This document shows, one piece after another, positions 398 through 59,144 of a stretch of 64,000 nt of DNA. A model generated the notes under the pieces. It saw nothing but the letters and a program-made list of their open reading frames with translations, had not been told where the DNA came from and searched no databases. The DNA is from a virus. Each line of letters begins with the position of its first letter. The first letter of the stretch is position 1. The stretch lies in the IMG/VR virus record IMGVR_UViG_3300045988_131126; one strand, written 5' to 3'. Both the position numbers and the translations under genes were made by a program.

Positions 398-490
398 TCC
401 TAATACCTCCATTCTTGGTATAATTACTTTATTGTTTCGGGGCTTTAATATGTATAATAATTGTATATAATAAATATGAAAATAAGATAA

Positions 491-932: not shown

Positions 933-944
933 AACAATTGAGTA
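933..944 (+). promoter_or_regulatory. Late-type promoter word AACA-N6-TA (aacaattgagta)
   Basis: 41 nt upstream of ATG 985. Member of a nine-copy set. Confidence 0.4.
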
Positions 945-3565: not shown

Positions 3566-3577
3566 AACAAATAAGTA
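3566..3577 (+). promoter_or_regulatory. Late-type promoter word (aacaaataagta)
   Basis: 37 nt upstream of ATG 3614. Confidence 0.35.
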
Positions 3578-3613: not shown

Positions 3614-4768
3614 ATGTTTTTTGAAAGTATTTTAGAGGAAGTAAATATAGATGAGCCTGTATCTGAATCTACTATGGAAGAGATCAGACAGCTCAGTATT
3701 CCGAATTTTATGGAGTCAGCTTTATCTCCATTCGATCTTGTAGATAAAGGTATATATGAAAATGCTAAAGCCTATAATGATATGGTTTCAAAAATTAGTA
3801 AAATTGAACTTAATTATTTAAGAGAAAATGGTGAAGAACCAGTATGGGAAGCATCTGATCATCAGTCTATTTTTGCTAGATTTATTGCTGGAATAAAACA
3901 TATTATCCAGGTTATTGCTGGAGCATTCCAGAAACTTATCAAATCTATTGATGATATGATTACAAATCGGTATAAAAAGCTTGGTGCTGAATTTGTAAAA
4001 CAAATGCAAAGTGCTGAGATTCGTGGTGTCGATCTTAGTAATAAAACATTTACACTTATAAAATATGAACCTGAAGTAGGTATCAGACTTCTTCATAATG
4101 CCGAAAATGTTCAGGGAAATATTAATAAGGTAGATGCTTATAAGAAAGCATGGTCTTATGTATTCACTGGTGAATCAACGAGATCTTCAGAAGGACTTAA
4201 AGAAGTAGAAGGTAATGCAGTAGATTCTTTGAGAAAAGTATTATTCAATCACTCTGCAATTGATACTTCCAAATTAAATAGCAATGCTGCTGCTAGAGAC
4301 GCATTAAGATCTGCTATGTGTCCTGCAAGAGGAAGTGCTTCTTTTGGTGAAGCTATGTATTATGTAAAAGCTTATAGAGCTGATCCTAGAGCGCAGAAAC
4401 TTAAAGCTGGACTTAAACAAATGTACCAGCGAATCAACAAAGTTTTAGGAAAACAGATCGACGTTGCTAAATCTTTACAGAAATCTATTGATGGTAAAAA
4501 AGAACCTGTACCATCTCAGGTTACAGGAAGCATCGTTTCTGGACTTAATGCATACTCTTCAATGGTAACTAGTATTTATAACGAAACAGTTAGATGCGCA
4601 TCTAAGAGATGGTCCCAGTCTTGTACTCTTACATCTAAACTTCTTAAATCTGCAAAAGGTGAATTAAAAGGTAACGCTAAAGAACAGAAATCTGCAGCCA
4701 AAGATATGAAGAATTTCGATAAAGATCAGGAAAAGAAAGCATCTAAAGCTACAAAAGAAAACAAATAA
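3614..4768 (+). CDS. Hypothetical protein
   Basis: ORF track. AGGAGG SD. AACA-N6-TA at 3566-3577. Confidence 0.75.
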   Translation: MFFESILEEVNIDEPVSESTMEEIRQLSIPNFMESALSPFDLVDKGIYENAKAYNDMVSKISKIELNYLRENGEEPVWEASDHQSIFARFIAGIKHIIQVIAGAFQKLIKSIDDMITNRYKKLGAEFVKQMQSAEIRGVDLSNKTFTLIKYEPEVGIRLLHNAENVQGNINKVDAYKKAWSYVFTGESTRSSEGLKEVEGNAVDSLRKVLFNHSAIDTSKLNSNAAARDALRSAMCPARGSASFGEAMYYVKAYRADPRAQKLKAGLKQMYQRINKVLGKQIDVAKSLQKSIDGKKEPVPSQVTGSIVSGLNAYSSMVTSIYNETVRCASKRWSQSCTLTSKLLKSAKGELKGNAKEQKSAAKDMKNFDKDQEKKASKATKENK

Positions 4769-13570: not shown

Positions 13571-14356
13571 TTATACAGTGATGAATCTGTTACGAATTGT
13601 AGGATCTTGCACGCCAACACCGCATTCTCTTAATACGTTATTCATAGCCGTAAGATCATACTGTGTAATGGATAACAGATAGTTTGATCCTCCAAAGTTT
13701 CCGAATGATGGGATATAGTTTACAGGTTTAATTTCATAAACTACTTTATTACCTTTTTCATTCTTCTCTGGAAGAAGCGCTTTCATTAATACGTTGACAT
13801 CGATGCATCTTACATATTCGTGAATAACATTTACTACTCTACTAAATCCTCCAGCAGTAGGTGTAGCAACTACATCTTCTACGTAGATTCCTTTGGATTG
13901 GAAAGATCTTGGATCTGCTTTCATTCTAGATCTGATATCTGGAATGATTAAATCATATAACAGATCTGCAGCATCCTGTGTAATTACGAATGATTCTTTT
14001 GTGTCGATCATCTGGTTATGTGCTTTCATACTCTCGATGATAGGGCCAGCTCCCCTTTTACCATCTTCTTCTGTAATTTTTCTGAATGCTTCGAATTCAG
14101 CATCAGAATTATTAATACTTCCTGGGGTGAAATCCATTACTACAGAAATAGGCACTTCCTGCTGACTGATGTTTCCTACTTCGATATAGCATCCGTGATA
14201 ATCTTTAAAAAGATTTTTAAAGATCGAATTAATGGTTGATGCTAATGTGTTTGAGGATCTGTAATCAGTGTAAGTAGTACCGGTAAAATCCTCTTTCTGC
14301 TCGATGTTGAGAGTTAATTTTTCTCTCTCCTGTTTCTGGTTGTTCTGTTCGCTCAT
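13571..14356 (-). CDS. Hypothetical protein, probably abundant (261 aa)
   Basis: ORF track. AAGGAGG SD. Visibly GC-richer codon usage than its neighbours. Both an early-type and a late-type promoter word lie upstream, and a strong terminator lies downstream. Confidence 0.8.
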   Translation of the reverse strand: MSEQNNQKQEREKLTLNIEQKEDFTGTTYTDYRSSNTLASTINSIFKNLFKDYHGCYIEVGNISQQEVPISVVMDFTPGSINNSDAEFEAFRKITEEDGKRGAGPIIESMKAHNQMIDTKESFVITQDAADLLYDLIIPDIRSRMKADPRSFQSKGIYVEDVVATPTAGGFSRVVNVIHEYVRCIDVNVLMKALLPEKNEKGNKVVYEIKPVNYIPSFGNFGGSNYLLSITQYDLTAMNNVLRECGVGVQDPTIRNRFITV

Positions 14357-14399: not shown

Positions 14400-14411
14400 T
14401 ACCTAATTGTT
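14400..14411 (-). promoter_or_regulatory. Late-type promoter word (aacaattaggta on the minus strand)
   Basis: About 44 nt upstream of ATG 14356. Confidence 0.4.
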
Positions 14412-15533: not shown

Positions 15534-16100
15534 TTATATTATTTTTGACATTTTTAAAGCGGTCAAATGTTCAGGCTTTAGTATATGTAGAACGTCATCT
15601 AATACATAAAATTTACCTTGATGATGCATATTATAATCATATACAGTTTCGTTTACACGTCCTCTATATAGATGATCATATTCTGCTAAATATACTTCAT
15701 TATAAGTTCCATGCCATGACATTCTTTTGTTCGATGGTTTAGTGTATCTACTAAATATAGTTACATAACTAAGTCCAGTATAGTATATATTTTTCGATAT
15801 TATTTTAGCTTCTTCTTTAATTTCATTATACACTTGATCTGTATGAGATCTTCTTATATCAAAAGATCCACCCGGTATTCTATATCTTTGCTCATTGATA
15901 TCCATATATATCTTATTATCTTTAAATAGAAATACTTCTACTCTTCCACGAAATATTTTATCTGGATATCCTTCTACTGTTACAATACTATTCCAATTAT
16001 TATTTACGTCATAATATCCCCCGTATCGTATAAATTTTTCAATATTAACCTGTTTAGATCTAGGTATTCTTTTTTGATGCTCATATTCCGTATAGTCCAT
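15534..16100 (-). CDS. Nudix-like protein (degenerate Nudix box)
   Basis: GRVEVFLF...RIPGGSFDIRRSHTDQVYNEIKEEAKI resembles a Nudix beta-strand plus REUxEExGU box, with N replacing R and K replacing G. It is a paralog of the C-terminus of the 35407-37731 protein. I moved the start from 16115 to ATG 16100 (GGAGGA 8 nt upstream). Confidence 0.5.
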   Translation of the reverse strand: MDYTEYEHQKRIPRSKQVNIEKFIRYGGYYDVNNNWNSIVTVEGYPDKIFRGRVEVFLFKDNKIYMDINEQRYRIPGGSFDIRRSHTDQVYNEIKEEAKIISKNIYYTGLSYVTIFSRYTKPSNKRMSWHGTYNEVYLAEYDHLYRGRVNETVYDYNMHHQGKFYVLDDVLHILKPEHLTALKMSKII

Positions 16101-16122
16101 AATAGCATCCTCCATACATAAT

Positions 16123-16134
16123 TACGTGATTGTT
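16123..16134 (-). promoter_or_regulatory. Late-type promoter word (aacaatcacgta on the minus strand)
   Basis: 23 nt upstream of ATG 16100. Confidence 0.35.
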
Positions 16135-16899: not shown

Positions 16900-17283
16900 T
16901 TAATCTATCAAAGAAGTCAATAATTCGTATACATCGCATAATGCAGTTTGAACTTCTGTAACCTGTTTATTAGTATCATCTTTATTTTTTTGATATTTTA
17001 ATAGAAATTCGTTTAAAGCATTCTCCATATATGATATCTTATCATCAGCAGAATCAGGAATTAATACATATTCATACGATACTTTCTTTGTATATATATC
17101 ATAATATGCAATAGCTCTCTTTCCTTCTACTAATTTAGGTTCTGGAAAATCTTCAATAAGGAATCCTTCTTTCAATAACTCAGCTCTTGATTTATTTAAA
17201 CCATTTACAGGATCGAATGGACAAGAATGAATGAAAGTAATCATTCCTTTATTAGCTCTATCTATTCTTATGAATGTCTCCAT
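16900..17283 (-). CDS. Hypothetical protein (127 aa)
   Basis: ORF track. AAGGAGG SD. Confidence 0.75.
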   Translation of the reverse strand: METFIRIDRANKGMITFIHSCPFDPVNGLNKSRAELLKEGFLIEDFPEPKLVEGKRAIAYYDIYTKKVSYEYVLIPDSADDKISYMENALNEFLLKYQKNKDDTNKQVTEVQTALCDVYELLTSLID

Positions 17284-17335
17284 AATACGAAACCTCCTTT
17301 AAATTACTTATTTGTTTCACTTATATTTATTTAGG

Positions 17336-17483: not shown

Positions 17484-18188
17484 ATGGGAACAAAATTAGG
17501 ATTTGAAGATTCAATTAGAGGGCTGGACGAATCAAAAAGAAACGGATATGGCCCGATCGTAAACTCCATAAATAGAAATGGAGGTTTAAAAAGAGACCGA
17601 TATAATTTTGGTAAATATGGAGAGAAACCATATTTACCGGAACTTGAAAGAAGATCTAACCAAGAATTTATGCCAGAACCTTACGATCCAGATTACAAGC
17701 TTTTCATTAAAGCTATGATAGATGATATCATTGGTTTACACAAACCAGTATCTGGATACATTTTGAAATTGATTTTTGATGAATATCAGAGAGGTAAAAC
17801 CTCTACAGATATTTATACTAATTTCTATACCAATTACATTAGTGGGAAGAATGATTCCACTCACTGTAATATAGCAAATAATAATCTTTATTTACTTTTT
17901 ATAAATACTTGGAATGATATTATCCCAAGAAGAGTATTAAAAGAATCAGACATAGTACTGCCTATCTTGCAGAGTTTATCAGGAGAAACAAAATTACCTG
18001 AAAAAGAAATATTTGCGAGAGAAATTGCAATTAGGATACACAATAAAGTTCCTGGTGATGATTGGAGAGAAGAAATGGACGGTAATATCCATTTATGGGA
18101 TAAACCAATCCATATTAAATATCTTTTAATTGCAAAAGATATCATCTCTTGGAATATATTCAATAAAGCAGAAGATGAGGAGGAATAA
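17484..18188 (+). CDS. Hypothetical early protein (234 aa)
   Basis: ORF track. AAAGGAG SD. Early promoter word and TCWGAAT sites upstream. Confidence 0.75.
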   Translation: MGTKLGFEDSIRGLDESKRNGYGPIVNSINRNGGLKRDRYNFGKYGEKPYLPELERRSNQEFMPEPYDPDYKLFIKAMIDDIIGLHKPVSGYILKLIFDEYQRGKTSTDIYTNFYTNYISGKNDSTHCNIANNNLYLLFINTWNDIIPRRVLKESDIVLPILQSLSGETKLPEKEIFAREIAIRIHNKVPGDDWREEMDGNIHLWDKPIHIKYLLIAKDIISWNIFNKAEDEEE

Positions 18189-18191: not shown

Positions 18192-19019
18192 ATGGCAGAA
18201 GTAAGAGAAATGGTAGAAAATCCACAAGTTACAGCTGACGATATACAGAAGAACTATGAAAGAGTTTTGAAACTTATGAAAGAAGTTGCTGGTCCATTCA
18301 TTGATGAAAACTATAGATATATGAATGGTTTAGGAAGTACAGGTTGGAACTCAACCTGTACTAATAAAGTAATCGAAACTATTTTAAAGAAGTGGGGAAT
18401 AGATGAAGATATTTATTCCATCACCGGAGAAGAGAAAGATACTACTTTTATTAGTGGTCTTATCCTTATCGAAGACTTATTAAAGAATTTCTCTGTAAAT
18501 GAAATTCTTTTAATGTTTTACAGAACTTTTGATCTTCTGTCATATGACGATCTTATGTCTGATTATTCCGAAGAAATACAGGAGCAATTATACTCTGAAT
18601 TATCTAATAAACTTAGAAGGTTCATTATGGGTATGATGAATAAGTTTAATATAGATAAAAGTATATTAAAACTTCTTCCTGATTTTCATAATGCTAGATA
18701 TACATCAGAAGATCAGGTGCGTATCTTGTGGTTTAATCATTGTACTCATATTAACGTAATGGTCAGATACGGTCATCTTTATTCAGAAGAATTTACAGAT
18801 TATCTTATTGATCATATGGTTAAAAAGATGAAAAGTGTAAAAACTGATAGAGAAAGAAACGATATTCTGTTGATGATACATACGTTAATGGAAAGTCGAA
18901 GATTTATGCCTATAAGTGAAATGTTTAAAAAGAAACATGCGGAAATTATTGATAAAGCTGAAAAGAGAGTAATTTCTAATTGCTATTCTTTAAAAGAAAT
19001 TTTTAACGATTATATTTAA
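18192..19019 (+). CDS. Hypothetical protein (275 aa)
   Basis: ORF track. GAGGAGG SD. Confidence 0.75.
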   Translation: MAEVREMVENPQVTADDIQKNYERVLKLMKEVAGPFIDENYRYMNGLGSTGWNSTCTNKVIETILKKWGIDEDIYSITGEEKDTTFISGLILIEDLLKNFSVNEILLMFYRTFDLLSYDDLMSDYSEEIQEQLYSELSNKLRRFIMGMMNKFNIDKSILKLLPDFHNARYTSEDQVRILWFNHCTHINVMVRYGHLYSEEFTDYLIDHMVKKMKSVKTDRERNDILLMIHTLMESRRFMPISEMFKKKHAEIIDKAEKRVISNCYSLKEIFNDYI

Positions 19020-21283: not shown

Positions 21284-22150
21284 TTATAAATATTTTTTAG
21301 TACAGAAATCTATTATTTCATCTCTTACATGATCTTCTATATTAACCATTGCTATATCTCCGGTAGTTTTATTTACCAATCTTACTTGATTAGCATTTTC
21401 TGTAAGAGATATATCATTATACTCAAATTCTAATGATTCTGTAAACATTTTAAGATTAGCGGATTCCTGTTTGACGAAATCTATCACTCCTGGAGTAATA
21501 ATAGGAATAAGCAAACCAGAATCATTTTCTGTAAGATATAATCTGTTTCCATTATCGCATATTCCAGATTCTTGAATACAAGCACCTTCAGATACAATCT
21601 TTTCTGTATATGCTTTATCATGGGATGGATAAATTACTCTATCATAAGTAATTAATTTAAGACCTTTTACCTCTCCACCTCTAGCAGTCTGTTCTATTCT
21701 ACCTAAAGCGCGTAAAGACCAAGATGGAAGAAATCCATCAAGCAAATCTTGATTAAATTCTGCTCCTTTAGCATTATTAGTTCCTCTATATCTACCTTTA
21801 ACAAAATTACCTTCTGTCCATAAAGCTGTAAATATAGCAACTGTATTGTTCGGATCAATAGTTTGCTGTCTTTGTAAACTACTATCCATAGGATGACCAT
21901 TTTCTGCTCTCATATTACCAGTTTTAACTAATTCTTGTGTTCTTGAACAAGTAATCTGAGGGAATAATTCGTTATCACTATACCACCTTAAGTTTCTATT
22001 TCTCATATTAGCTTCCTGCAAAATACCTTCTGCAGTAACCTTATTAGTACCATTTCTATCTACGTCTATTTTTACGGGAAATTCCTTGTTCGTAAGACCC
22101 GTTTCAATGATTATATAACCCATATTTTTTAAAGGATTAGTACGAATCAT
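21284..22150 (-). CDS. Prohead core protease, T4 gp21-like
   Basis: By eye, QEANMRNRNLRWY, RAENGHP and LPSWSLRALG align with T4 gp21 QAEVVNRNKRLY, GELNHP and IPGVSSRGLG (the catalytic His and Ser regions). AAGGAGG SD. AACA-N6-TA upstream. Confidence 0.75.
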   Translation of the reverse strand: MIRTNPLKNMGYIIIETGLTNKEFPVKIDVDRNGTNKVTAEGILQEANMRNRNLRWYSDNELFPQITCSRTQELVKTGNMRAENGHPMDSSLQRQQTIDPNNTVAIFTALWTEGNFVKGRYRGTNNAKGAEFNQDLLDGFLPSWSLRALGRIEQTARGGEVKGLKLITYDRVIYPSHDKAYTEKIVSEGACIQESGICDNGNRLYLTENDSGLLIPIITPGVIDFVKQESANLKMFTESLEFEYNDISLTENANQVRLVNKTTGDIAMVNIEDHVRDEIIDFCTKKYL

Positions 22151-22179: not shown

Positions 22180-22191
22180 TAATAAATTGTT
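22180..22191 (-). promoter_or_regulatory. Late-type promoter word (aacaatttatta on the minus strand)
   Basis: 30 nt upstream of the protease ATG at 22150. It is divergent with the word at 22223-22234. Confidence 0.45.
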
Positions 22192-22222
22192 TCGGATCAT
22201 AGCCTATAAATGTACCAGGGTA

Positions 22223-22234
22223 AACAATATTATA
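22223..22234 (+). promoter_or_regulatory. Late-type promoter word (aacaatattata) with the upstream ATGTACCAGGGTA element
   Basis: 30 nt upstream of ATG 22264. Confidence 0.45.
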
Positions 22235-22263: not shown

Positions 22264-24756
22264 ATGCATAGATATATCCCAATGCAAACGGTAGTATTCA
22301 GAAAACAATCTCTGACTGGTATGAATAATTTGGTATATATGAATGAAAGCAGATTTATCAATTATGCTTTCATTGAACCGAAGAAGAACAGTCCTTACAA
22401 AGCCAAAAAAGAATATCTAAATGCTTGCGATAATTCCAAATTTTTAAATGAAACTGGAAGTATATCAAAAGTTACAAAAGTAATTAATAGTATAATGGAA
22501 TCGGGAAGCAATAGTCAAAAAGAAGAAACTATGAGATATATAAATAATAACTTGATTCCAAAATTAAACAGAGATGCTACATCTATATTTGTAAATCAGA
22601 TTAATAAAAAGTTTTTGAACGAAAATTACACTAATAGTATTAATGATACTATTAGTATTTATAAAGAATGTGATCGTGTATTAAATAATGACAAGAAATT
22701 AGCAAAGAGATTTAATTTTGATAAATTTATTCAGGAGAATTACAATAGGAAAACTCCTAAAGAATTGGTCTTCTCTTTATGTGAAATGATAGATACATAT
22801 AATATCAGTCCAAAACAAAAATATTATATAGCTTTAGAGTCTGTACAATACGCTTTATATAATTCTCCAGTAAAAATGGATAATGTGGCTAAAGATATAA
22901 CTGATTATTTTTTATTGAGGGAATCAATTATACCGGATAGTATAATGTCTGGCTATATATCTTGTGCTAAAGATAACCAATTTTTAAGCCCAGAAGAATT
23001 ATCCAAATTAAAAATAATCAAAAATGATTATAGGGATTCGTATTTAACAAAGATAAATTATATTTCATCTACATTAGATAACGAAAGAGCAAGAAATATG
23101 CTCAATAGAATTCAAAATATTAGTACGGAGGAAGATGCTTCCCAGTATATAAAAGATGTATATAATTCTATTATGAATGACGTTACATTATCAGATTCGG
23201 ATAAAACAGAATTGGAGAATTCTATATATATGATACCATTAGTATCTGGTATAGATCAATTATTTATTGACTACGAGATTAAGAAAATAGATGGAGCACT
23301 ACTGGCAACAAGAGATTTAACTGAAACTGTAAACTATATAAACGAATATTTTGAGGATACTGGAATGGTAAGTGCTCCGAATATTCGTGATACTATAGAA
23401 AGTTTCAAATGCTCACAAGATAAGACACCGAAAAGATTTGCAAGATTAATCGGTAAGTTTAATATAAACAGCGAATATGCTATTGATGTACTTATAGAAT
23501 CTTTGCCTGAATTATATCTTATAATGAGATCTATATATGTAGCGGTATATTCTAATTCTGATTTAGAATATGTAATGCAAGAATATTTGTATTTATTCGA
23601 TAGAATTGACGAATATGCTGATCAGAAGCAATATGCCGATATATATAAAGCAATATCTAAAGAGATATCATGTGTTGATAAGATATTAAACGATGGAATA
23701 CCAGACCAAGAGATATCTGAAAGATATATAGAATATAAATCTACTCTCGATAAATCTTTACAAAAAATAGATAAATTGATGAGTACCCACCACGATATTT
23801 TATCGGAAAATACAAGTTTATTTAATGATATGAGTATAGAAGAATGTGAAAGTCTAATTACTACTTTAGCTAATGGAATGGATTCAGTAAATAGATTAAA
23901 TAAAGAAGAATTGCTATCATCTATATCCGATAATATAAGATTATTTACTATAAATTCTGATAATCTTAGAAATCTTTCTAATATATTGATGATAAGCAAA
24001 TGTGTAGATAAATCTGCCTATCAAAGTTGTTTGATTCAAAGAGCTTCTAATGATGATTGTACCAAAGCTGAAAATCTTATTATTGCAAATGAATTATCTT
24101 ATCTTAAAGATTATTGCTATCCAAAAGTAGACGAGATAACCGAATGTGTAATGATAATAGAATCAGTAAAATTATTAGAAGAATGCTTTTTTGAAGATAT
24201 AGTAAATGAAGCCACAGGAAAACCAATTGGTAAAAAGAAAAAGAAGAAATTGACATTTAATGACCTTCAGATAGCCATGAAAGCATTTGGAGCTAAATTA
24301 AGACAAATAAATACTAAAGCTGCGTCTATGTGGCAAAATATAGATGCTAAAGCAGCTAATATAACCAAAGGAATGCAGAGGGCGTTGACATCAGATAGAA
24401 GAGAAGCCATTATAAAAGGATCTATTATACCATCGATGTCTTCTTGCATTAAATCTATTATAGCTATATCTGGTACAACATTAGTCGGATCATTCTTTGG
24501 CGCACCATATGTAGGAATATTAACAGCTGTAGGTATATTTGCAGTTAATAAAAAATTAAACGATAGAGAGAGACTTTTAATTTATGATGAAATAGATACA
24601 GAGTTAAAAGTTGTAGATAAAGAAATAGAGATGGCACTTCAAGATGGGGATACTAAGAAGTATAGATTTCTATTAAATTATCAGAAAAAATTAAATAGGG
24701 AAAAAACTAGAATAAAATATCACACTACACCAATAGCCAGAAAGATTCCAGTATAA
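22264..24756 (+). CDS. Hypothetical large head-module protein with C-terminal TM segments
   Basis: ORF track. GGGAGG SD. AACA-N6-TA at 22223-22234. It lies between the protease and the acidic / major-capsid genes. Confidence 0.75.
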   Translation: MHRYIPMQTVVFRKQSLTGMNNLVYMNESRFINYAFIEPKKNSPYKAKKEYLNACDNSKFLNETGSISKVTKVINSIMESGSNSQKEETMRYINNNLIPKLNRDATSIFVNQINKKFLNENYTNSINDTISIYKECDRVLNNDKKLAKRFNFDKFIQENYNRKTPKELVFSLCEMIDTYNISPKQKYYIALESVQYALYNSPVKMDNVAKDITDYFLLRESIIPDSIMSGYISCAKDNQFLSPEELSKLKIIKNDYRDSYLTKINYISSTLDNERARNMLNRIQNISTEEDASQYIKDVYNSIMNDVTLSDSDKTELENSIYMIPLVSGIDQLFIDYEIKKIDGALLATRDLTETVNYINEYFEDTGMVSAPNIRDTIESFKCSQDKTPKRFARLIGKFNINSEYAIDVLIESLPELYLIMRSIYVAVYSNSDLEYVMQEYLYLFDRIDEYADQKQYADIYKAISKEISCVDKILNDGIPDQEISERYIEYKSTLDKSLQKIDKLMSTHHDILSENTSLFNDMSIEECESLITTLANGMDSVNRLNKEELLSSISDNIRLFTINSDNLRNLSNILMISKCVDKSAYQSCLIQRASNDDCTKAENLIIANELSYLKDYCYPKVDEITECVMIIESVKLLEECFFEDIVNEATGKPIGKKKKKKLTFNDLQIAMKAFGAKLRQINTKAASMWQNIDAKAANITKGMQRALTSDRREAIIKGSIIPSMSSCIKSIIAISGTTLVGSFFGAPYVGILTAVGIFAVNKKLNDRERLLIYDEIDTELKVVDKEIEMALQDGDTKKYRFLLNYQKKLNREKTRIKYHTTPIARKIPV

Positions 24757-25715: not shown

Positions 25716-25727
25716 AACAATTTAGTA
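25716..25727 (+). promoter_or_regulatory. Late-type promoter word (aacaatttagta) upstream of the capsid gene
   Basis: 59 nt upstream of ATG 25786. Confidence 0.45.
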
Positions 25728-25785: not shown

Positions 25786-27558
25786 ATGATCGCAGGAAAT
25801 ACTACTAATACAGTCATGGGTGGTTCTTATAGTGCTGATCACGCACTTTATAACTTCTCAGAACAAGTTAAAAACTTATTTGAAGATATGGAGCAGACAT
25901 CTCAGCACAACATTCTCAGTGAGACATGTAAAGTGCTTAAAGATGATCTTGCTTCTGATCAGCTCAAGAAATTCTTCGTTGAAAATTCTTGTGATGTAAA
26001 CGAATACGTTGAAAGACCTCAGGCTCTTGAGGAACACTACAACGATATGGAACAGCTGTATGAAAACGATAAGAAAGCTCTTATGGAGAATACAGCTATG
26101 GGAACAATCAACCCTATCGTTGGTCTTACATTCCCAATGCATAAACTTATTCTTATGAATATGGTTTTTGATAAAGGTGCTATTCAGAAAATGATCGCTC
26201 CACAGCAAGCATTCACTGTTGCTATGGAAAGACGTATCATGATTGATACTGAAGGAAATGAGCTTGACCTTTACAAAGATCAGAATAAACTTACTGCAGC
26301 TATTAAGAAAACTGCAGCTGTTAAAGAGATCGAACTTCAGCTTCCTGTAACTGATGATACAGAAATTGTAAATCAGTATCTTGATGGTATGGCTGGTGTT
26401 GATCATCTTAACGTTGAAACATATGTATGTGCTGTTAAAGTACCTAACGTATATTTCGAAAAAGGTGATATTCTTCCGGATGAAAATGGATATCTTGGAG
26501 AGGGAGAAGAAGCTACAGAAGCTACAACAAAAGATGTTTGGGTTCGTACAAAAGCTAACTTCGTTCCGATCTATGATGATGACGGAAGAGGACTTACACA
26601 TAAATTCAAATTCACCCACAAAGTACTTGAGGGTTCAGAAGTAAAAATTAAAGATGACTGTGATGTACTGACAGGTTATATGAAGAAAGACCGTCTGATG
26701 ATCCAGTCTAACAAGGGTGTTGTTACAGCTGTTAAGGTATATGCAAGACTTGATACATCTTCTGCAAACCTTACTACATGCTCTGCATCCTGGAAACAGA
26801 TCACAAGCCTTGTAGAGATTCCTGAAGGTATGCCAATCAATACCACAATCTCTCCGCAGGAAGTTAAAGATATTGCAGCAATGTATAATATCAACCAGAT
26901 TACAAAAGTTCTGGATATTACAAAAACATTACTTGCAAACTATAAAGATGATGATATTAAAGAATCCCTTGATACGTCTTATCTTGGATTATCTGAGGAC
27001 GAGAAATTCTTTAATACATACGATTTTGCTCCAAGAGCATCTTACTACAGTGACCATGTAAATTGGAGACGTGATACATTCTTCGATTTCTTCGATGAAT
27101 TCGTTGAAAGAATGCTTCGTGTACTCAATGATCCGAACGTTACTGTTACTATCTTCGGTGATGCTTCCATCATCAGAAAGATTGCTCCGGTAGAATATAG
27201 CTATCAGTCTCCATCCAACATTGGACCAGTAGAACTGGATTATGTTAAGACTGTAACTACATCTCACCATAGAGTATATCAGTTCATCGCATCTGATAAG
27301 ATGAGATTCTCTAATGATCTTATTGTAATTCTCTGCCCAAGAGGAACAGATAGAATCATATACAGAATCTATGATTATCAGACATATGTATCCAATGAGA
27401 TCCGTAATGCAAATAATCCATCCCTGCCAGCTATTCATGCATTTGAAAGATACAAATTCTATGAATATCAGCCAGTTCAGGGACGTATTAAGATTAAGAA
27501 TCCTACAGGTCTTATTCCAGAAACATATGATGTTGTTCCGGTTAAACATATTGCTTAA
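25786..27558 (+). CDS. Major capsid protein, T4 gp23-like (putative)
   Basis: INPIVGLTFPMHKLILMNMVFDKGAIQKMIAPQQAFTV resembles gp23 GPAVMGMVRRAIPNLIAFDICGVQPMNSPTGQVF. C-terminal NPSLPAIHAFERYKF resembles DPKNFQPVMGFKTRYG. Biased codon usage, a late motif upstream and a strong terminator downstream. Confidence 0.7.
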   Translation: MIAGNTTNTVMGGSYSADHALYNFSEQVKNLFEDMEQTSQHNILSETCKVLKDDLASDQLKKFFVENSCDVNEYVERPQALEEHYNDMEQLYENDKKALMENTAMGTINPIVGLTFPMHKLILMNMVFDKGAIQKMIAPQQAFTVAMERRIMIDTEGNELDLYKDQNKLTAAIKKTAAVKEIELQLPVTDDTEIVNQYLDGMAGVDHLNVETYVCAVKVPNVYFEKGDILPDENGYLGEGEEATEATTKDVWVRTKANFVPIYDDDGRGLTHKFKFTHKVLEGSEVKIKDDCDVLTGYMKKDRLMIQSNKGVVTAVKVYARLDTSSANLTTCSASWKQITSLVEIPEGMPINTTISPQEVKDIAAMYNINQITKVLDITKTLLANYKDDDIKESLDTSYLGLSEDEKFFNTYDFAPRASYYSDHVNWRRDTFFDFFDEFVERMLRVLNDPNVTVTIFGDASIIRKIAPVEYSYQSPSNIGPVELDYVKTVTTSHHRVYQFIASDKMRFSNDLIVILCPRGTDRIIYRIYDYQTYVSNEIRNANNPSLPAIHAFERYKFYEYQPVQGRIKIKNPTGLIPETYDVVPVKHIA

Positions 27559-28977: not shown

Positions 28978-29054
28978 ATTTTTAACTCCTTTTCTTTATC
29001 CTCTTAGGTGTGAAAACCTATTATTTTATATAAGAGTTACGGATAGAGTAATAG

Positions 29055-30854
29055 TTAAAACTTAGGATCTGTAAGCTTTACTTTATCCTCATTCAATACT
29101 TTAGTTAAATTATATATGGCTTGTACTGCTTCATTTGTAGAAACTTTAATATTATTTCCACCAAGATCTATATATACTGCTTTAGAATTAATCTGCTCCC
29201 TTAACTCTCTATTGGCTTCTTCTGACCAAACAGCTTTTACAGAACACTGGTCACCATCATAGTCACCACCAATGGATTTAAGATAAACATTACTGAATAC
29301 TAATGTATCAATGAACTTATTGGAAGTATCACTTCCAATATCAGATTCTCTAATCTTTGGATAGAATGGATAATATGTATTATTTACATATATCTTTTCG
29401 GTTTCTTTTGTTGTACTTACTCTTACTAGTATCGGAAACTCGTTGAAGTAAGAATCCATAGGGAATCGAGTAATAAGAATGGTTTTATCCTTACATGCTT
29501 CACATGCTGCCATATATAATACATCACACCATGTAAGCGGCCTATTAATAAGAGAAGATTCTCCCATTATATCACCGCCAGTTTTAGCATACTTAGCTTT
29601 AGATACTTTCTTACCTTTAAATACTAATCCTAAAGTTCTTCCTGTCTTTTGATCGGTTAATGTAACTGGTTCTAATCTCTTAGAGAAAGAGAAGATAAAT
29701 TTATCTATTTGAGAATCTATCTCTTCATCAGAAAAAGTTATAAGTGGATCTTTAGGTTCAAACGGTACTAATTTTTTAGCTTTCGGATCGTAGACTTGCA
29801 TCAATTCTACATTTTGAAATAGATTTTCAAATAATCTTTTAGTCTGGAATATAATAAATGGCTTAAAGTTTACCAATGCAGATGCTAATGGTAATGCTGC
29901 ATGGTCTGTATCTACCATTAAATCTTCCATAGCTTCTACTTTTAAATCTGGAGCTGATAATACCAAACGTGTACCCATATCTGTAGATTTACTTAATACA
30001 GCTTCACGTATAATACCTGTCTTACCAGCTAATCCAATGCCATCATCTTTATTTTTAGAAGTACCAAATAAAGCATTAGATATATTTAATAAAGTTTCTT
30101 GTATTCTAGCATTAGTAGTATTCTCTATAGATAATCCGTAATCCTGAGTTTCTTGTATAGCTTTAGATGATATTATTAATGATTGATAATACTTATTAAT
30201 ACCACCAGCTCCAACAGCACCTTTAACCTTAGTATCCATATCTCTATAGAACGGAGGTATTACAAGAAATTTATCAAGAAACATCATTTTCTTGCATTTA
30301 TATAAGAATTGTATCTTTGTTGATCTAGTTCTTGTACCAGTTTCTTTTATTTTTATTTTATTTATATTTTTTCTAAGGAATTCTATACCAGTATCACCGC
30401 CAGATTGTACCTCTTGAATTAAACCATCCTGGTCTACTTTATAGAATCCTATCCCTGATACTATATTTCTAATTCTTTTATCTATACTGCACCATACTTT
30501 GTAGCAAAATGGATGCATGAACCACCCATGTAAATCAATATAACCAAATATATTAGCTCTATCATCTTTAGTTATACCGAATATTTCTTGAGATAATAAT
30601 CCTTTCGGAGCAGGATAGCCATCTCTAATAAATAATAAAGTATCTGTGATCTCTTCTACATTATTTTTCTTTATAAAATCTTGATAATCTAATAAGTCTA
30701 CCTTAAGGTGATTCATTTCTGCTTCATTCAAAACTCTACGACCATTGGTAGACACCCCATGAACAACAAGATTTACTATATTAAACTCTTCTTTAGTTAA
30801 AGTGAATTGTCCAGATTTACGCTGATAGTTTAGTGCACCTAAAATACCTGTCAT
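29055..30854 (-). CDS. RNA polymerase beta-prime subunit, N-terminal half (phage multisubunit RNAP)
   Basis: FLVIPPFYRD (compare VLPPDLRP), GKTGIIREAVLSKSTDMGTRLVLSAPDL (compare [24 protein letters not shown]), ITRFPMDS (compare NRAPTLH), IGGDYDGDQCSV (compare NADFDGDQMAVH). Confidence 0.85.
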   Translation of the reverse strand: MTGILGALNYQRKSGQFTLTKEEFNIVNLVVHGVSTNGRRVLNEAEMNHLKVDLLDYQDFIKKNNVEEITDTLLFIRDGYPAPKGLLSQEIFGITKDDRANIFGYIDLHGWFMHPFCYKVWCSIDKRIRNIVSGIGFYKVDQDGLIQEVQSGGDTGIEFLRKNINKIKIKETGTRTRSTKIQFLYKCKKMMFLDKFLVIPPFYRDMDTKVKGAVGAGGINKYYQSLIISSKAIQETQDYGLSIENTTNARIQETLLNISNALFGTSKNKDDGIGLAGKTGIIREAVLSKSTDMGTRLVLSAPDLKVEAMEDLMVDTDHAALPLASALVNFKPFIIFQTKRLFENLFQNVELMQVYDPKAKKLVPFEPKDPLITFSDEEIDSQIDKFIFSFSKRLEPVTLTDQKTGRTLGLVFKGKKVSKAKYAKTGGDIMGESSLINRPLTWCDVLYMAACEACKDKTILITRFPMDSYFNEFPILVRVSTTKETEKIYVNNTYYPFYPKIRESDIGSDTSNKFIDTLVFSNVYLKSIGGDYDGDQCSVKAVWSEEANRELREQINSKAVYIDLGGNNIKVSTNEAVQAIYNLTKVLNEDKVKLTDPKF

Positions 30855-30909
30855 TATATTAGACCTCCTAATATTAATATTATAATAAAGTTACAGATAG
30901 CAGAAAATA

Positions 30910-33841: not shown

Positions 33842-33885
33842 TTACCTCCTTTAAATCTTACTATAAAGTTATTCAAATACAATTA

Positions 33886-35354: not shown

Positions 35355-35406
35355 GTATATCTGAAACATTTCAGTAATTAATCAAATAAAGGAGAGTACA
35401 GTTATT

Positions 35407-37731
35407 ATGAACGAAATAGCATTAATGGAAGCAGCCTCTTCTGTATATAAAAGAAAATATCAATGCCCTTACTGTAACGAAAAATATGATAGAATTAAAC
35501 TTGTGGATCATATAGAAAAGAAACATTCGGAATTCATTCCAAAAGACTTTACTGCATCTAGAATAGTATTTAATACCGTAAATAAAAAAGAAAAAGGCAA
35601 ATGCACTATATGTGGAAAAGAATCTCCATGGGACGAAGATAAATGTAGATACGATAGATTTTGCAGTGATAAATGTAAAAAAGCTTACGAGCAACTAGCT
35701 GCAGAAAGATTAAAAAGGGTAAGAGGAATGACTAAGCAAGAAATGCTTAAAGATCCAGAATATCAAAATAATGTAATGCTTGCCAATAGAAGTATATCAG
35801 GAAAATATAAATTTCAAGATGGAACCATAAGAACTTATGTAGGTTCTTATGAGCATAAGTTTTTGGAATTTATGGATAAATTTTTAAATGTAAAAAGCGA
35901 GGACCTAGAAACTCCTGGGCCTATAATAGAATATAAGTTTAAAGGAGAAACTCATAAGTGGATTACTGATGCTTATTATGCTCCATATAACTTAGCATTT
36001 GATATTAAAGATGGCGGAGATAATCCAAATAAAAGAGAAATGCCTGAATATAGAGCTAAACAAATAGCAAAAGAAGATGCTATTAGAAAACAAGGTAAAT
36101 ATAATTATATAAGATTAACCGATAACAAGTTTGAGCAATTGATAGAATTAATGCTTGAATTAAAAGAATTATATATAGAGAATAATGGAGAATATAATCC
36201 TATTATAAGAATCAATGAATCTACTGTATTAGAAAGCAAGAAAGCCAAAGACTTAGGACCTAAAGTATGTAGTAAATGTGGATCTAAAAACATAGGAGTA
36301 TTTTTCCAAGGAGAACCTATCTACAAATGTAAAGATTGCGGAGAATATTTAGGAGTAGTACCATTTAACGAATCTGCTTCAAACGATATAATCCAAAATG
36401 CGTTTAATTCAGTAATTCATACTATTAAATGGTGCAGAATGGATGACTCTGCTTTTTGCAGTATAAATGAATATAACAAGCCAAAGATAATTAGCGATAA
36501 TTCATTCTCTGCTGGTAAATTTGCGTATGAATCTGGAATTGATGCTGTAGTAAAAACTATTAACTATAACAATATTTTCGAAAATGGAAAATATTCTGCA
36601 AGATGTGATAATAATGAATTAATTATCACGATTGATAAATTGAATAACATGAATGAATCATATATTATAGATGAAATATATAAAGGAGATAATAATATGA
36701 TTCGTGAAAATAAATCTACACTTGATCCAAATCATAAAACTAAAAAGACTGATACAACTTTTAAGTTTATAGATCTTAAAGATCCTAGCGTAGATAAATA
36801 TTTAAAACAAGACAAATATTGTACAGAGTATTGGGATTATATTCATAAAAGTTGCATAGGTGAAATAGTTATAGATGCTGATAGCGATTGTATAGCAGGA
36901 TATGTATTCTTAGATAATAAGAAATATCCGGGATTTATAACTCCGGTTGTAGTGATTAAGAAATATAGAGGATATGGATTATCTTCTAAGCTTGTAAAAG
37001 ATGCCATAAATAAATATAAGGCCATAGATTTAACTGTAACGAAAGATAACGAAGTTGCTATTAAATTATATAAAGATAACGGGTTCGTTATAATTGGAGA
37101 CGGTAATTCCAAAAATGAGTATTGGATGAAGCTCAAAAGCAAGCTTACTGATGAAGAGAAATCTAAATCACTAAAAGAATTTTCTATAATAACTCCATCA
37201 TCTGATAAACCTTCTCAAGAAGGATTTATTGGTCATGGATCTTGGAATGCTATTAAGAAAGTTAATGGAGAACCATATAGAGAGCGTGTAGAAGTAATTA
37301 TATTTAATAAGGAATTAGATAAAGTACTTATTGGTACTAGAAAATCTGATGGTAGTGTTAAACTACCTGGAGGTGGTACTGATAAGAATTCTTCATTAGA
37401 GTCTCAAGCTGCTAAAGAATGTCAAGAAGAAGTAAAGGTAAATATAGATAATCTTAAGTATATCGGAAGTTATTCTATGTCTAATGAACAGGCTAGGTAT
37501 AAGGATGATGTATATAAAGGACAATACACGTATCTATATTTAGCAATTTATGATTCTGATTATACTGGATATATTAGACCAGAAGATCTTGATTCTTTAT
37601 ATGATACAGCTGAATGGATGAGTATTTATGATGCTAAAAAATTATTAAAGAAGAGATCTGTAGATTTATACAACTTATTTAACTATAATTATAAATTATA
37701 TATTAATGATTTATCGTATTTAAAATTATAA
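35407..37731 (+). CDS. Multidomain protein: C2H2 and FCS-type zinc fingers, PD-(D/E)xK-like nuclease, zinc ribbon, GNAT acetyltransferase, Nudix-like domain
   Basis: - Zinc fingers: CPYCNEKY..HIEKKH and RFCSDKCKKAY.
- Nuclease: SYEHKFLEFMD..IEYKFKGETHKWITDAYY..LAFDIKD (D..DxK).
- Zinc ribbon: CSKCGS..CKDCG.
- GNAT motif A: VVIKKYRGYGLSSKLV..
- Nudix-like: RVEVIIF..LPGGGTDKNSSLESQAAKECQEEVKV. Confidence 0.6.
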   Translation: MNEIALMEAASSVYKRKYQCPYCNEKYDRIKLVDHIEKKHSEFIPKDFTASRIVFNTVNKKEKGKCTICGKESPWDEDKCRYDRFCSDKCKKAYEQLAAERLKRVRGMTKQEMLKDPEYQNNVMLANRSISGKYKFQDGTIRTYVGSYEHKFLEFMDKFLNVKSEDLETPGPIIEYKFKGETHKWITDAYYAPYNLAFDIKDGGDNPNKREMPEYRAKQIAKEDAIRKQGKYNYIRLTDNKFEQLIELMLELKELYIENNGEYNPIIRINESTVLESKKAKDLGPKVCSKCGSKNIGVFFQGEPIYKCKDCGEYLGVVPFNESASNDIIQNAFNSVIHTIKWCRMDDSAFCSINEYNKPKIISDNSFSAGKFAYESGIDAVVKTINYNNIFENGKYSARCDNNELIITIDKLNNMNESYIIDEIYKGDNNMIRENKSTLDPNHKTKKTDTTFKFIDLKDPSVDKYLKQDKYCTEYWDYIHKSCIGEIVIDADSDCIAGYVFLDNKKYPGFITPVVVIKKYRGYGLSSKLVKDAINKYKAIDLTVTKDNEVAIKLYKDNGFVIIGDGNSKNEYWMKLKSKLTDEEKSKSLKEFSIITPSSDKPSQEGFIGHGSWNAIKKVNGEPYRERVEVIIFNKELDKVLIGTRKSDGSVKLPGGGTDKNSSLESQAAKECQEEVKVNIDNLKYIGSYSMSNEQARYKDDVYKGQYTYLYLAIYDSDYTGYIRPEDLDSLYDTAEWMSIYDAKKLLKKRSVDLYNLFNYNYKLYINDLSYLKL

Positions 37732-43772: not shown

Positions 43773-43793
43773 TAATATCTTTATTTTTTGATC

Positions 43794-47256: not shown

Positions 47257-47370
47257 TGCACCTAATTCCCTTCTTTGAGAGCTTTATTTACTTATTTGTA
47301 CGTACAAAAATGATTCCGTAATATCTTTATTTTTGTCAAAATTATAGATCTTAATAAATCCTAATACAAA

Positions 47371-48174: not shown

Positions 48175-48196
48175 TAAAAGAAAGGAGTATTATATT

Positions 48197-53315: not shown

Positions 53316-53400
53316 TTAAATATCTTCCTTTCTTTTAGAATTATTCTTATGTGTTCGCAAAGATAATATATCATTAAAACTAGTATAAGGTTAAAATAAG

Positions 53401-53412
53401 AACATATGTGTA
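53401..53412 (+). promoter_or_regulatory. Late-type promoter word (aacatatgtgta)
   Basis: 64 nt upstream of ATG 53476. Confidence 0.35.
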
Positions 53413-53946: not shown

Positions 53947-54010
53947 TTAATATAAACATATAAGTAATTCTGATAAGTAAAATACCTTCAATAATAATCA
54001 ACGAAAGATA

Positions 54011-54149: not shown

Positions 54150-56357
54150 ATGGACGAATTATTTAATGATCTTTTAAATCCGGAGCCATTTATATCAAAG
54201 ATTCAATCTCGATTTAATGAGATACAACCTTTGATAATTGATGATCTGACGCACTATGAAAATTATGGTGAATATGTACCGCTAGTTAATACTGGAGCGA
54301 TCAGTATTAACACTTCTAATTTGAGTAAAGAGAATATTGATTCTCATTTTACTTGGATTTATAATATCATTGCTGATGGCATTGAGCAGAAAAAAGTTCA
54401 TGATATGATAGTATATATTACATTTATGGATAATGTACAAATTAGATTATCTATATTTGATTATATGCTTAATCTTATTATGTGGAAACTACCTTTGCAA
54501 GCCGGAGATTCTTTAACAAGTAATTTCCTATTCTTTGATGATTGCATCACGCAGGATTCTATCAAAGATTATATTGATTTTAAATTCATTGATATTCACA
54601 GAAGAGATTTTAATAACTGTGATATGAATCAAATGATTGATGAGACAATATACAAATTTATGTATATTGATGACTTTGCTTATTATCTTATCAATACTAT
54701 CAATGAAAAAGATACTATTGATTTAATGAAGAAGTCCCAAGTAGCATGGGATACATTGCATTTTTCTACGGTACAATATCCGTTGGAAGACAAGAAAGAT
54801 GCTGCTATGGATATGACAAACAAATTAATTGCAGTAATAAAAGCACCTGATTCTGAGCATTGTTTAAGGGATTCGTTCAGAGCTAGAGAAGGTGTTAACC
54901 CAAAACAGTTCAGGGAAATGATTTGCAATATTGCAACTAAACCCGATGGTAATGGAAGTATCTTTAGTATCGACCTCGATACAAACTATATGCAAGAGGG
55001 TGTAGCAAAACCTGAATATTATACTATTGATAGTAGTGCAGCAAGACAAGCACAGATCTTAAATAAAGAGAATGTAGGACAATCTGGAGCATTTTCTAGA
55101 AAATTAAGATTAAATAATATGCACGCTAAAATTCATCCAAACCCAAAATACGTTTGTAATTCAAAAAGATTCTTGCCAATATTTATTAAAGATATGAAAG
55201 TATTAGTAAGATTCAAAAACAGATATTTCAGATTTAATCCAAAAGGAATGGAGTATAAAGTATCTCCACATCCAGAAAGAGATAATGTAAATCTTATAGG
55301 AAAGACTTTATATTTTAGATCTCCGGAAACATGTGCTTCACATGCTAGAGGAGAAGGGATTTGTTATAGATGCTATGGGGATTTGGCATATACGAATGCA
55401 GATATTAACCCAGGATGTATGGCATCAGAGTTATTGTCTTCTGTATTAACCCAGCGATTATTGTCTGCTAAGCACTTATTAGAGACAAATGTAAAAGCAT
55501 TAAACTGGGTTCCGGAATTCAAAGATATTTTTGCTGTAAACTGGAATATGATTATGATTATGGATGATTTCATTCCAAAGAAATGGAAACTTATTATATC
55601 ATCAGATGATATTTATCAGGAATCAGAATATGATGAGTTTGATTATAACTCATGCATAACTACTTTCAATGTAATGGATCCTGATGGAAATACCATTCTT
55701 ATCAAAACAGAGGATTTAGACAACTTATATATTTCTCCAGAGTTAAGAAAAGTAATGGATAATCAGAAACTTGTAGATGATCAGTATATAATCGATTTCT
55801 CTGATATTATGGGGATTCATTTATTTATGGTCAATATTACAAATAATGGATTATCTGCAACTCTTGAACGATGCAAAGCTACTCTTGATAAACAAGCTAT
55901 TATTAAAGAGTATAAAAATGATATCGGATTATTTACACAAGGATTTATCAATACTATTATTGAGGGTGGACTTGATACAGATGCAGTTCATTGTGAAGTA
56001 CTTATATCAAATCAGTTACGTAGAGTCACAGACGATTTAGGAGATTCTATGTTACAACCTGAGTGGGAATATCCAAATGAACCATACAAGATCGTAACTC
56101 TTGATACAGCGTTAAAAGAGAACCCAAGTATCACTACATCATTGAATTATCAGTATATACAGAAACAGTTATTCAAACCAATTACATTTAAGAAAAATAA
56201 ACCTGGTATGATGGATTTATTCTTTATGGAAAAACCACAAGAATATATGAATGTAGAATTGGATTATAACCCGAAATTCAAAGATGACGTTGATGATGCA
56301 ATTGATGGATTTATTAATCCTATTTATCACGTAGATGAAAATGGTAATAAATTATAA
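54150..56357 (+). CDS. RNA polymerase beta-prime subunit, C-terminal half (phage multisubunit RNAP)
   Basis: SAARQAQILNKENVGQSGAFSRKLRL (compare [27 protein letters not shown]). RSPETCASHARGEGICYRCYGDLAYTNADINPGCMASELLSSVLTQRLLSAKH (compare RSxxTCxxxxGVCxxCYGRDLAxGxxVxxGEAVGxIAAQSIGEPGTQLTMRTFH). Confidence 0.8.
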   Translation: MDELFNDLLNPEPFISKIQSRFNEIQPLIIDDLTHYENYGEYVPLVNTGAISINTSNLSKENIDSHFTWIYNIIADGIEQKKVHDMIVYITFMDNVQIRLSIFDYMLNLIMWKLPLQAGDSLTSNFLFFDDCITQDSIKDYIDFKFIDIHRRDFNNCDMNQMIDETIYKFMYIDDFAYYLINTINEKDTIDLMKKSQVAWDTLHFSTVQYPLEDKKDAAMDMTNKLIAVIKAPDSEHCLRDSFRAREGVNPKQFREMICNIATKPDGNGSIFSIDLDTNYMQEGVAKPEYYTIDSSAARQAQILNKENVGQSGAFSRKLRLNNMHAKIHPNPKYVCNSKRFLPIFIKDMKVLVRFKNRYFRFNPKGMEYKVSPHPERDNVNLIGKTLYFRSPETCASHARGEGICYRCYGDLAYTNADINPGCMASELLSSVLTQRLLSAKHLLETNVKALNWVPEFKDIFAVNWNMIMIMDDFIPKKWKLIISSDDIYQESEYDEFDYNSCITTFNVMDPDGNTILIKTEDLDNLYISPELRKVMDNQKLVDDQYIIDFSDIMGIHLFMVNITNNGLSATLERCKATLDKQAIIKEYKNDIGLFTQGFINTIIEGGLDTDAVHCEVLISNQLRRVTDDLGDSMLQPEWEYPNEPYKIVTLDTALKENPSITTSLNYQYIQKQLFKPITFKKNKPGMMDLFFMEKPQEYMNVELDYNPKFKDDVDDAIDGFINPIYHVDENGNKL

Positions 56358-59132: not shown

Positions 59133-59144
59133 AACAACACTGTA
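59133..59144 (+). promoter_or_regulatory. Late-type promoter word (aacaacactgta) upstream of the terminase gene
   Basis: 26 nt upstream of TTG 59170. Confidence 0.4.

Follow-up and report, generated by a model that had tools for sequence, protein, structure and literature searches.

AACA-N6-TA words in an uncultivated jumbo phage of ~274 kb: probable late promoters of AR9 type

Two copies of the 12-nt word AACA-N6-TA lie back to back between a head maturation protease gene and a gene for an 830-aa protein in the DNA of an uncultivated bacteriophage, and further copies precede other genes on the same stretch. The question that this locus raises is whether these words act as promoters and, if so, for which RNA polymerase (RNAP). 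The stretch that was analysed (64 kb of IMG/VR record IMGVR_UViG_3300045988_131126; referred to as the window) has a GC content of ~30% and is part of a jumbo phage with a whole genome of ~274 kb; exact matches to proteins of the window are also encoded on near-identical contigs (273-276 kb) from several ENA assemblies. We consider, with a probability of roughly 0.87, that this phage, which is distantly related to the Bacillus phages AR9 and PBS1, uses the AACA-N6-TA words as its late promoters and reads them with its own RNAP. This is supported by the motif with its exact spacing and placement, by its conservation in relatives and its purge from genes, by the homologs of AR9 RNAP subunits and by the gene-by-gene match with the AR9 promoter classes, and the AR9-type late-promoter assignment made in an earlier reading of the window (the original prediction) stands.

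The late consensus of AR9, which the original prediction gave accurately, is AACA-(6N)-TA/G, whose last base is the transcription start site (TSS), and the early consensus is AAATATATATTAT-(6N)-G (PMC5312081). The non-virion RNAP (nvRNAP), together with gp226, recognises the late word in the template strand, as 3'-UUGU-5' at positions -11 to -8 (PMC9209446, PMC7598289), and the template-strand recognition by this enzyme goes together with activity on single-stranded DNA (PMC5449584, PMC9209446). Transcription in the AR9 group is independent of the host RNAP (PMC5312081, PMC7598289).

A spaced word enriched between genes and purged from them

All nine copies of AACA-N6-TA on which the original prediction was based were recovered at the same coordinates and on the same strands, and its counts of those that extend to AACAAT (six of nine) and to TAA (eight of nine) are correct. 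That list was incomplete, since four more exact intergenic sites and one TACA variant were found (Table 1). A same-strand gene start follows 12 of the 13 exact sites at a distance of 7-63 nt, the 13th being 53955(+) with 183 nt, and the genes concerned include those for virion proteins, the protease, the major capsid protein (MCP) and the large terminase subunit (TerL). The nine copies are thus all non-coding and upstream of same-strand start codons as had been claimed, but at 7-63 nt instead of 23-64 nt; the 7-nt case is 16123(-), for which the distance becomes ~25 nt if an ATG with a Shine-Dalgarno sequence is taken as the start.

The word was counted in intergenic and coding sequence over the whole window and compared with shuffled sequences, a check that had been proposed together with the promoter assignment, and this gave an intergenic excess as well as a coding deficit. 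Relative to dinucleotide shuffles there are 30 copies in the window versus 72.2±8.8 expected and 16 coding copies versus 63.5±7.9, while the non-coding 9.6% of the window accounts for 14 of the 30 copies (13 sites; binomial p=1.8e-7); the bare word is under-represented overall because genes avoid it. As a stricter null we used a synonymous-codon shuffle, which keeps each protein and its codon usage. With this null AACA is found in genes 267 times in sense versus 378±12 and 147 times in antisense versus 213±10, and the full word 12 times in sense versus 40.5±4.7 and four times in antisense versus 18.5±3.5 (in total 16 versus ~59), whereas neighbouring words and other spacings are far less depleted.

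The effect is specific to the spacing. Coding sequence holds 16 copies at N6 versus 27-53 at other spacings, and for intergenic sequence the numbers are 14 at N6 versus 2-12. Longer versions of the word separate the two compartments completely, with 10 intergenic and no coding copies of AACA-N5-GTAA, and 12 intergenic and no coding copies of AACA-N6-TAA (16.3±3.6 expected in coding sequence).

For comparison we used 30 IMG/VR loci of related phages, among which group B comprises ten loci from five independent genomes with 49-53% MCP identity to the window phage and group C is more distant, as well as AR9 itself. In the window the observed/expected ratios in genes are 0.70 for AACA, 0.22-0.30 for AACA-N6-TA and 0 for AACA-N6-TAA, and for the last of these the synonymous shuffle gave ratios of 0.38 (group B), 0.20 (group C) and 0.31 (further lineages that have a gp226). 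The corresponding AR9 values are 1.00 (AACA, both strands), 0.83-0.89 and 0.65-0.83; hence, gene avoidance of AACA and of the full word is strong in the window phage, and in AR9 there is none for AACA and only a slight one for the full word. The AACA/TGTT tetranucleotide itself is ~30% under-represented on both strands of the window genes, a bias not seen in AR9. The word is strongly purged from genes across the clade. We infer that the longer and better-defined word of this lineage is nearer to being sufficient for initiation than that of AR9, in which case stray copies on either strand would be costly.

Positions outside the search pattern are conserved as well. Of the 13 intergenic sites, 11 have G at position 10 and 12 have A at position 13; T is favoured at positions 14-15, and the consensus reads rAACAaT..aGTAAtTaT. 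GTAA is present at 10 of the 13 intergenic copies and absent from all 16 copies in coding sequence (Fisher p=1.4e-5). When upstream regions were compared by k-mers in an unbiased way, three signals alone emerged: the Shine-Dalgarno sequence, AACAAT/GAAACAA and AGTAATT/GTAATTA. Chance copies were the caveat attached to the original prediction, as the genome has 30% GC and the word is AT-rich with six fixed bases only; the N6 specificity, these extra conserved positions, the conservation in relatives (see below) and the exclusion of AACA-N6-TAA from genes refute this explanation, to which we give practically no credence.

The same positions bear on whether the host RNAP might use these sites, as a σA-type promoter or activator site or with a phage σ-like late factor such as gp55 of T4. 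With its AT-rich sequence, the GTAATTAT part of the word is loosely similar to a -10 element, but no conserved bases are seen upstream of AACA at the place of a -35 element, the 6-nt gap between AACA and TA does not fit the -35/-10 geometry, and the σ70/σA arrangement of -35 and -10 hexamers 16-18 nt apart is not seen at the sites; matches of σ70 type in the window are at chance level (98 versus 91±9). In addition, the phage has two RNAPs of its own, and transcription in the AR9 group does not depend on that of the host. Taken together, we regard a host RNAP promoter as very unlikely. The late promoters of T4 consist of TATAAATA, a single short AT-rich element near -10 that serves late virion genes and is used by gp55, a phage σ-like factor, with the host RNAP. 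The window phage differs from T4 in having RNAPs of its own, and the word and its geometry are different.

Alternatively, the word could act in the RNA, as a signal for processing, stability or translation in the 5'-untranslated region (5'-UTR), and the sense orientation close to start codons would suit such a role. An mRNA signal is not expected to be depleted from the antisense strand of genes, and the antisense depletion therefore indicates a signal at the DNA rather than the mRNA level; moreover, the distance to the start codon varies between ~20 and 110 nt among orthologs, and in AR9 the TSS is within the word. An RNA-level function is accordingly highly improbable in our view.

Relatives, RNA polymerase genes and two predicted promoter classes

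The 10 kb beyond each end of the window, which were unseen when the motif was defined, extend the sequence searched to 84 kb of the ~274 kb (~30% of the genome) and yielded three further sites, at 25-57 nt before genes; one of these sites precedes a 618-aa gene adjoining a tail-tube gene. Upstream of the MCP gene, AACAATATAGTAA is present in every group B locus at ~50-110 nt from the ATG, in flanks that are otherwise unalignable. The 22223 site before the 830-aa gene is kept upstream of the ortholog in all five independent group B genomes, and the AACA block on the protease side (22180) is also kept in group B, sometimes with a spacer of 7 nt. The N6-specific pattern recurs in group B, with 51 coding copies versus 71-108 and 41 intergenic copies versus 10-25 at other spacings, and group C shows the coding dip at N6 (62 versus 119-217).

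In many group C relatives (L019-L021, L023, L024, L026, L031, L034 and L035) we also noted by eye a hairpin ~40-80 nt upstream of the MCP start, in which the loop keeps ACGTCCTTCA and the stems vary among lineages; none of these loci has an AACA word within 130 nt before the MCP gene. This hairpin could be a conserved element of the 5'-UTR or of the DNA.

AR9 orthologs were identified for 14 window proteins at 20-34% identity, among them the protease (AR9 g114), MCP (g117), TerL (g121), virion proteins (g112, g153, g214 and g215), DNA polymerase (g152), helicase (g156), the virion RNAP β' N-terminal subunit (β'N; g145) and the nvRNAP β' C-terminal subunit (β'C; g154). The results with PHROGs are consistent with these assignments, and for most genes behind late sites neither PHROGs nor Pfam gave a function. 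The best cultivated MCP matches (gene 25786-27558) are the Staphylococcus jumbo phages S6, PALS_2 and Machias at only ~21% identity. The split β' genes on which the original prediction leaned are indeed encoded in the window, as homologs of AR9 gp145 and gp154, and through the latter the genome encodes a split-subunit nvRNAP. The RNAP subunits of the window phage are closer to those of AR9 than to those of phiKZ. The gp154 homolog would be part of the enzyme proposed for the late sites, and the gp145 homolog part of that for early-type sites.

A second motif, TATATTAT-N6-G, is found at ~12 intergenic sites, before the genes for DNA polymerase and nvRNAP β'C and before small non-structural genes. 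It precedes the same kinds of genes as the early promoters of AR9, which like those of the MarsHill-like phages have the form AAATATATATTAT-(6N)-G and are read by the virion RNAP; what differs is that a subset in the window carries an extra upstream block, CGTAATATCTTTATTTTTTGA. The claim that genes of the early cassettes lack the late word applies to the promoter positions, while the genes 13571(-) and 54150(+) have one early-type and one late-type site each. For the nvRNAP β'C gene, the late 53955(+) site followed by the early 54061 site gives a dual layout like that of the 'continuously expressed' class in AR9.

The block CGTAATATCTTTATTTTTTGA is 21 nt long, and with at most three mismatches there are five copies on the plus strand (0.02 expected), at 43771-43791, 47317-47337, 50767-50787, 58483-58503 and 58881-58901. 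Four copies are directly upstream of a TATATTAT-like early promoter, usually after a terminator hairpin, and the fifth (47317) has the exact octamer of this promoter ~35 nt downstream, such that the blocks form repeated 'early cassettes' before small genes. The block could be an upstream element for a subset of early promoters.

In AR9 itself, a scan placed the late word before g214, g114, g115, g117, g121, g153, g233 and g145; g152 and g154 are preceded by the early word, which corresponds to the annotated early promoters of AR9. The protease ortholog g114 has AACATATAATTA at the equivalent place, and P153, the promoter of g153, is an experimentally verified late promoter (PMC5312081). Between the two phages the promoter class is equal for nine orthologs, seven with late-type and two with early-type sites (DNA polymerase and nvRNAP β'C). 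The order at the DNA polymerase locus is also that of g152/g153/g154 in AR9, i.e. an early site on the minus strand for the polymerase, a late site on the plus strand for the virion protein and an early site before nvRNAP β'C. The agreement of the classes at 20-34% protein identity shows both of them, and their gene assignments, to be ancient and conserved.

Words of both AR9 promoter classes are present, and the start-site element AACAaT..aGTAAtT, with A as the sole predicted start base, is specific to the lineage. The AACA block, the 6-nt spacer and T-A at -1/+1 are shared with the AR9 late promoters (PMC5312081, PMC5449584, PMC9209446), as is the occurrence before virion, protease, capsid and terminase genes and the enrichment between genes (word density in AR9 2.9 per kb between genes versus 0.88 per kb). 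Differences concern the bases next to the start: the G that predominates at position -2 (11 of 13) is found in AR9 in 2 of 74 cases, the position there being A or T; the A at +2 (12 of 13) contrasts with a mixed position in AR9; and G at +1, present in AR9 in 12 of 74, is seen at none of the intergenic sites here. The late promoters of phiKZ, with TATG at the start and read by an nvRNAP with gp68, are similar in that a short start-proximal element is used by a phage split-subunit RNAP, whereas the window sites have no TATG and combine a GTAA start region, (A)GTAA(TT), with AACA at -11 to -8.

By analogy with AR9, an injected virion RNAP would read the TATATTAT-N6-G promoters and thereby lead to early production of the multisubunit nvRNAP, which together with a gp226-like subunit would bind the template-strand complement of AACA at -11 to -8. 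Initiation would take place at the A of TA, 11 nt downstream of AACA, and would switch on the virion, protease, capsid and terminase genes. In this scheme the start site, the reading of the template strand and the identity of the specificity subunit are predictions.

Several points weigh against the late-promoter assignment. The intergenic excess of the bare 12-mer is modest when only intergenic DNA is shuffled (14 observed versus 7.2±2.6, with at least 14 reached in 13 of 1000 shuffles), the gene model is a greedy longest-ORF (open reading frame) prediction and not a curated annotation and is hence crude, and both start sites and timing are predicted from the sequence. The nvRNAP β subunits and β'N were not seen within the 84 kb, and no subunit of gp226 type was found in the 84 kb or on any of the listed contigs of the window's own subclade. 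Finally, the virion RNAP β'N gene, for which late expression is expected, has no exact AACA site and is preceded only by an AACT variant. Such AACT-N6-TAA words, which share GTAACT(T/C)TTAT, are found at 33859-33870(-), 30881-30892(-) and 29027-29038(-) before successive minus-strand genes; with four intergenic versus seven coding copies the enrichment of AACT-N6-TAA is weak, and these words may represent a variant late or a middle promoter class.

The gp226-like subunit and the uracil question

The original prediction also raised the possibility that the genome carries deoxyuridine (dU) in place of thymidine (dT). In AR9 gp226, valine 206 (V206; helix 2.1bis) excludes thymine, and a V206G mutant accepts T (PMC9209446). 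Searches with AR9 gp226 (phmmer and tblastn) gave no significant homolog in the window, and family hidden Markov models built from 11, 12, ~34 and ~258 members gave no significant gp226 in the window, the group A and B loci or the flanks of 10 kb on each side. Two alignment-based scans of related loci for the gp226 of this phage retrieved contigs of other lineages only, and the list of proteins homologous to gp226 (445 clusters) was saturated by sequences of group C type.

Two candidates were discarded. The position of the gene in group C suggested a split gp226 encoded by the ORFs 17484-18188 and 18192-19019 (234 and 275 aa, behind an early-type promoter), and these were rejected as the gene order differs in group C and they have no detectable homologs or family matches. 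In group B, the L013 ORF 2253-2762 scored 13.6 bits; this is a lone 170-aa ORF without a counterpart, and the match was therefore treated as due to chance.

Clear gp226 homologs are present in the group C relatives (E 1e-44 to 1e-48), and that related phages which purge the same word have this subunit was counted in favour of the late-promoter assignment. The gp226-like family is large in metagenomes, with 297 IMG/VR loci and, at 50% identity, 770 clusters. In an alignment on W208, five group C loci have G at the position equivalent to V206, one has A and another T; across 39 further loci the position is variable, and among the relatives as a whole G, A, T, V, I and K are seen. Among 125 diverse family representatives V is present in 40, and W208 is kept in 123. 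The AR9-type 'YSD.VIW' subgroup retains the valine.

Genes of a dU pathway were not found in the sequence searched. Homologs of AR9 g104, g151 and g221 were not found in the window by tblastn, including the dTMPase g151, which in AR9 adjoins the polymerase gene g152; no gene for Ugi, dTMPase or dCMP deaminase was detected in the 84 kb (tblastn for the window, Pfam for the flanks), and there were no Pfam calls for dCTP deaminase or dUMP kinase in the 10-kb flanks. The dU suggestion had come with a list of genes to look for (Ugi-like, dTMP phosphohydrolase, deaminase and dUMP kinase), and none of these was found in 84 kb of ~274 kb; with no gp226 homolog in the same 84 kb and with V206 often replaced in relatives, the suggestion is unsupported.

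Two versions of the late-promoter assignment may thus be distinguished. In the first, the same promoter is present in a genome with dU for dT and its recognition is strictly uracil-dependent as in AR9. The cultivated phages with an AR9-type gp226 have all been shown or presumed to contain dU (PMC9209446, PMC7598289), the core word is identical to that of AR9, and by MCP and RNAP the closest cultivated relatives are dU phages, i.e. S6, the MarsHill-like phages, AR9 and PBS1. Points on the other side are the lack of Ugi, dTMPase and dCMP deaminase homologs in the 84 kb and the frequent replacement of V206 in related phages, in combination with the T-accepting V206G mutant of AR9. According to the MarsHill preprint, dU DNA blocks standard amplified libraries, and the full-length assembly of the ~274-kb phage from many ordinary metagenomes is therefore weak evidence against dU. 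We regard a dU genome as possible but doubtful, and the question of uracil leans slightly against it.

In the second version, the word is read on thymine DNA by a gp226-like subunit that lacks the thymine-excluding valine. If the subunit tolerates T, the short word would be nearer to sufficient, which would account for its purge from the genes of this lineage. The variability of V206 across the uncultivated family, with G in five group C loci, is consistent with this, and so are the AACA-N6-TAA ratios (0 for the window, 0.38 and 0.20 for groups B and C, respectively, versus 0.65-0.83 for AR9), the AACA ratio (0.70 versus 1.00) and the ready assembly of the phage from metagenomes. Conversely, the specificity subunit of the phage itself was not found in the sequence searched, the alignment near the 2.1bis helix could be one residue off, and the purge may have causes other than base chemistry; we consider this version rather unlikely. 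Extended to the clade, it would mean that a large group of AR9-like phages has retained template-strand recognition of AACA, has lost the uracil requirement through gp226-like subunits with G, A or T instead of the thymine-excluding valine, and has thymine genomes from which the word is purged, every copy of the short word being a competent promoter, with the window phage as an example. This proposal is more speculative and in our judgement probably incorrect.

Predicted promoter map of the window

The predicted promoters of both classes and the RNAP genes are listed in Table 1.

Table 1 Predicted promoters and RNAP genes in the window; letters in parentheses after a word follow it directly
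Feature	Coordinates	Strand	Context
Late-type word AACAATAAAGTA(ATTAT)	425..436	-	27 nt upstream of 693-aa gene running off the window start; not in original prediction
Late-type word AACAATTGAGTA(ATTAT)	933..944	+	Upstream of virion structural gene 985-2379 (AR9 g214 ortholog)
Late-type word AACAAATAAGTA(AAT)	3566..3577	+	Upstream of 3614-4768, function unassigned
Late-type word AACAATTAGGTA(G)	14400..14411	-	Upstream of 13571-14356(-); early-type site 14440(-) just upstream, both classes before gene
Late-type word AACAATCACGTA(ATTAT)	16123..16134	-	Upstream of 15534-16115(-)
Late-type word AACAAATAAGTA(ATTT)	17305..17316	-	Upstream of 16900-17283(-); not in original prediction
Late-type word AACAATTTATTA	22180..22191	-	Predicted TSS 22180, ~30 nt upstream of head maturation protease gene 21284-22150(-)
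Late-type word AACAATATTATA	22223..22234	+	Divergently paired with 22180(-); TSS predicted at 22234, 30 nt before 830-aa gene 22264-24756(+)
Late-type word AACAATTTAGTA(AAT)	25716..25727	+	58 nt upstream of major capsid gene 25786-27558; word also in AR9 g117
Late-type word AACATTTCAGTA(ATTAA)	35365..35376	+	After hairpin and T-run, upstream of 35407-37731 (N-terminal part AR9 g233 ortholog); not in original prediction
One-mismatch TACA variant TACAAATAAGTA(AAT)	47289..47300	-	Upstream of SF2 helicase gene 45712-47256(-); lower confidence; not in original prediction
Late-type word AACATATGTGTA(AAAAT)	53401..53412	+	Upstream of virion protein gene 53476-53946 (AR9 g153 ortholog)
Late-type word AACATATAAGTA(ATT)	53955..53966	+	183 nt upstream of nvRNAP β'C gene, early-type 54061 in between; not in original prediction
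Late-type word AACAACACTGTA(ATATT)	59133..59144	+	Upstream of large terminase gene 59170-61386 (AR9 g121 ortholog)
Early-type promoter TATATTAT-N6-G	53356..53370	-	Precedes DNA polymerase gene (51195-53315(-)); arranged back to back with late 53401(+)
Early-type intergenic sites	14440(-), 15522(-), 17377(+), 28285(-), 33886(+), 37821(+), 45674(-), 47373(+), 53363(-), 54061(+), 58507(+), 58905(+)		
Virion RNAP β'N gene	29055..30854	-	AR9 gp145 / phiKZ gp180 homolog (protein homology)
nvRNAP β'C gene	54150..56357	+	AR9 gp154 homolog, 29% identity, E 2e-42

The start of the terminase gene is uncertain (59144-59172), as the late-site leader contains GAGGAG and then the mini-ORF ATGATGTAA, while TTG at 59170 opens the long ORF. 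Intrinsic terminators are enriched in the window (14 versus 4.4±2.2), and Rfam and tRNA scans of it gave no matches. Three predicted proteins deserve mention. The first (35407-37731(+), behind a late-type promoter) is a 774-aa fusion of an endonuclease similar to AR9 g233, an acetyltransferase and a Nudix hydrolase, of which the AR9 ortholog spans the endonuclease part only; the second (39151-43737(+)) has 1528 aa with, according to PHROGs, a helicase region and an enoyl-CoA hydratase/crotonase-like segment; and the third (48146-48853(+)), located among small genes behind early-type promoters, gave a weak match to a MazF-like growth inhibitor (E 8e-6). The same phage is also contained in a contig of 381,972 bp (L081; ENA ERZ27239846 k141_42202), the others being 273-276 kb, and this may be a concatemer, a misassembly or a larger relative.

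The kind of promoter described here is already known from AR9, while its start-site element is lineage-specific and the genomic signature is unusually clean. Sequence alone suffices to recognise the AR9 late word at 20-34% protein identity, and this provides a transcription map for a widespread uncultivated phage of ~274 kb. The spacing-specific purge constitutes a sequence-only test that is applicable to other genomes. Finally, with a large gp226-like family that is variable at the residue that enforces uracil dependence in AR9, the evolution of uracil-dependent promoter recognition becomes directly testable.

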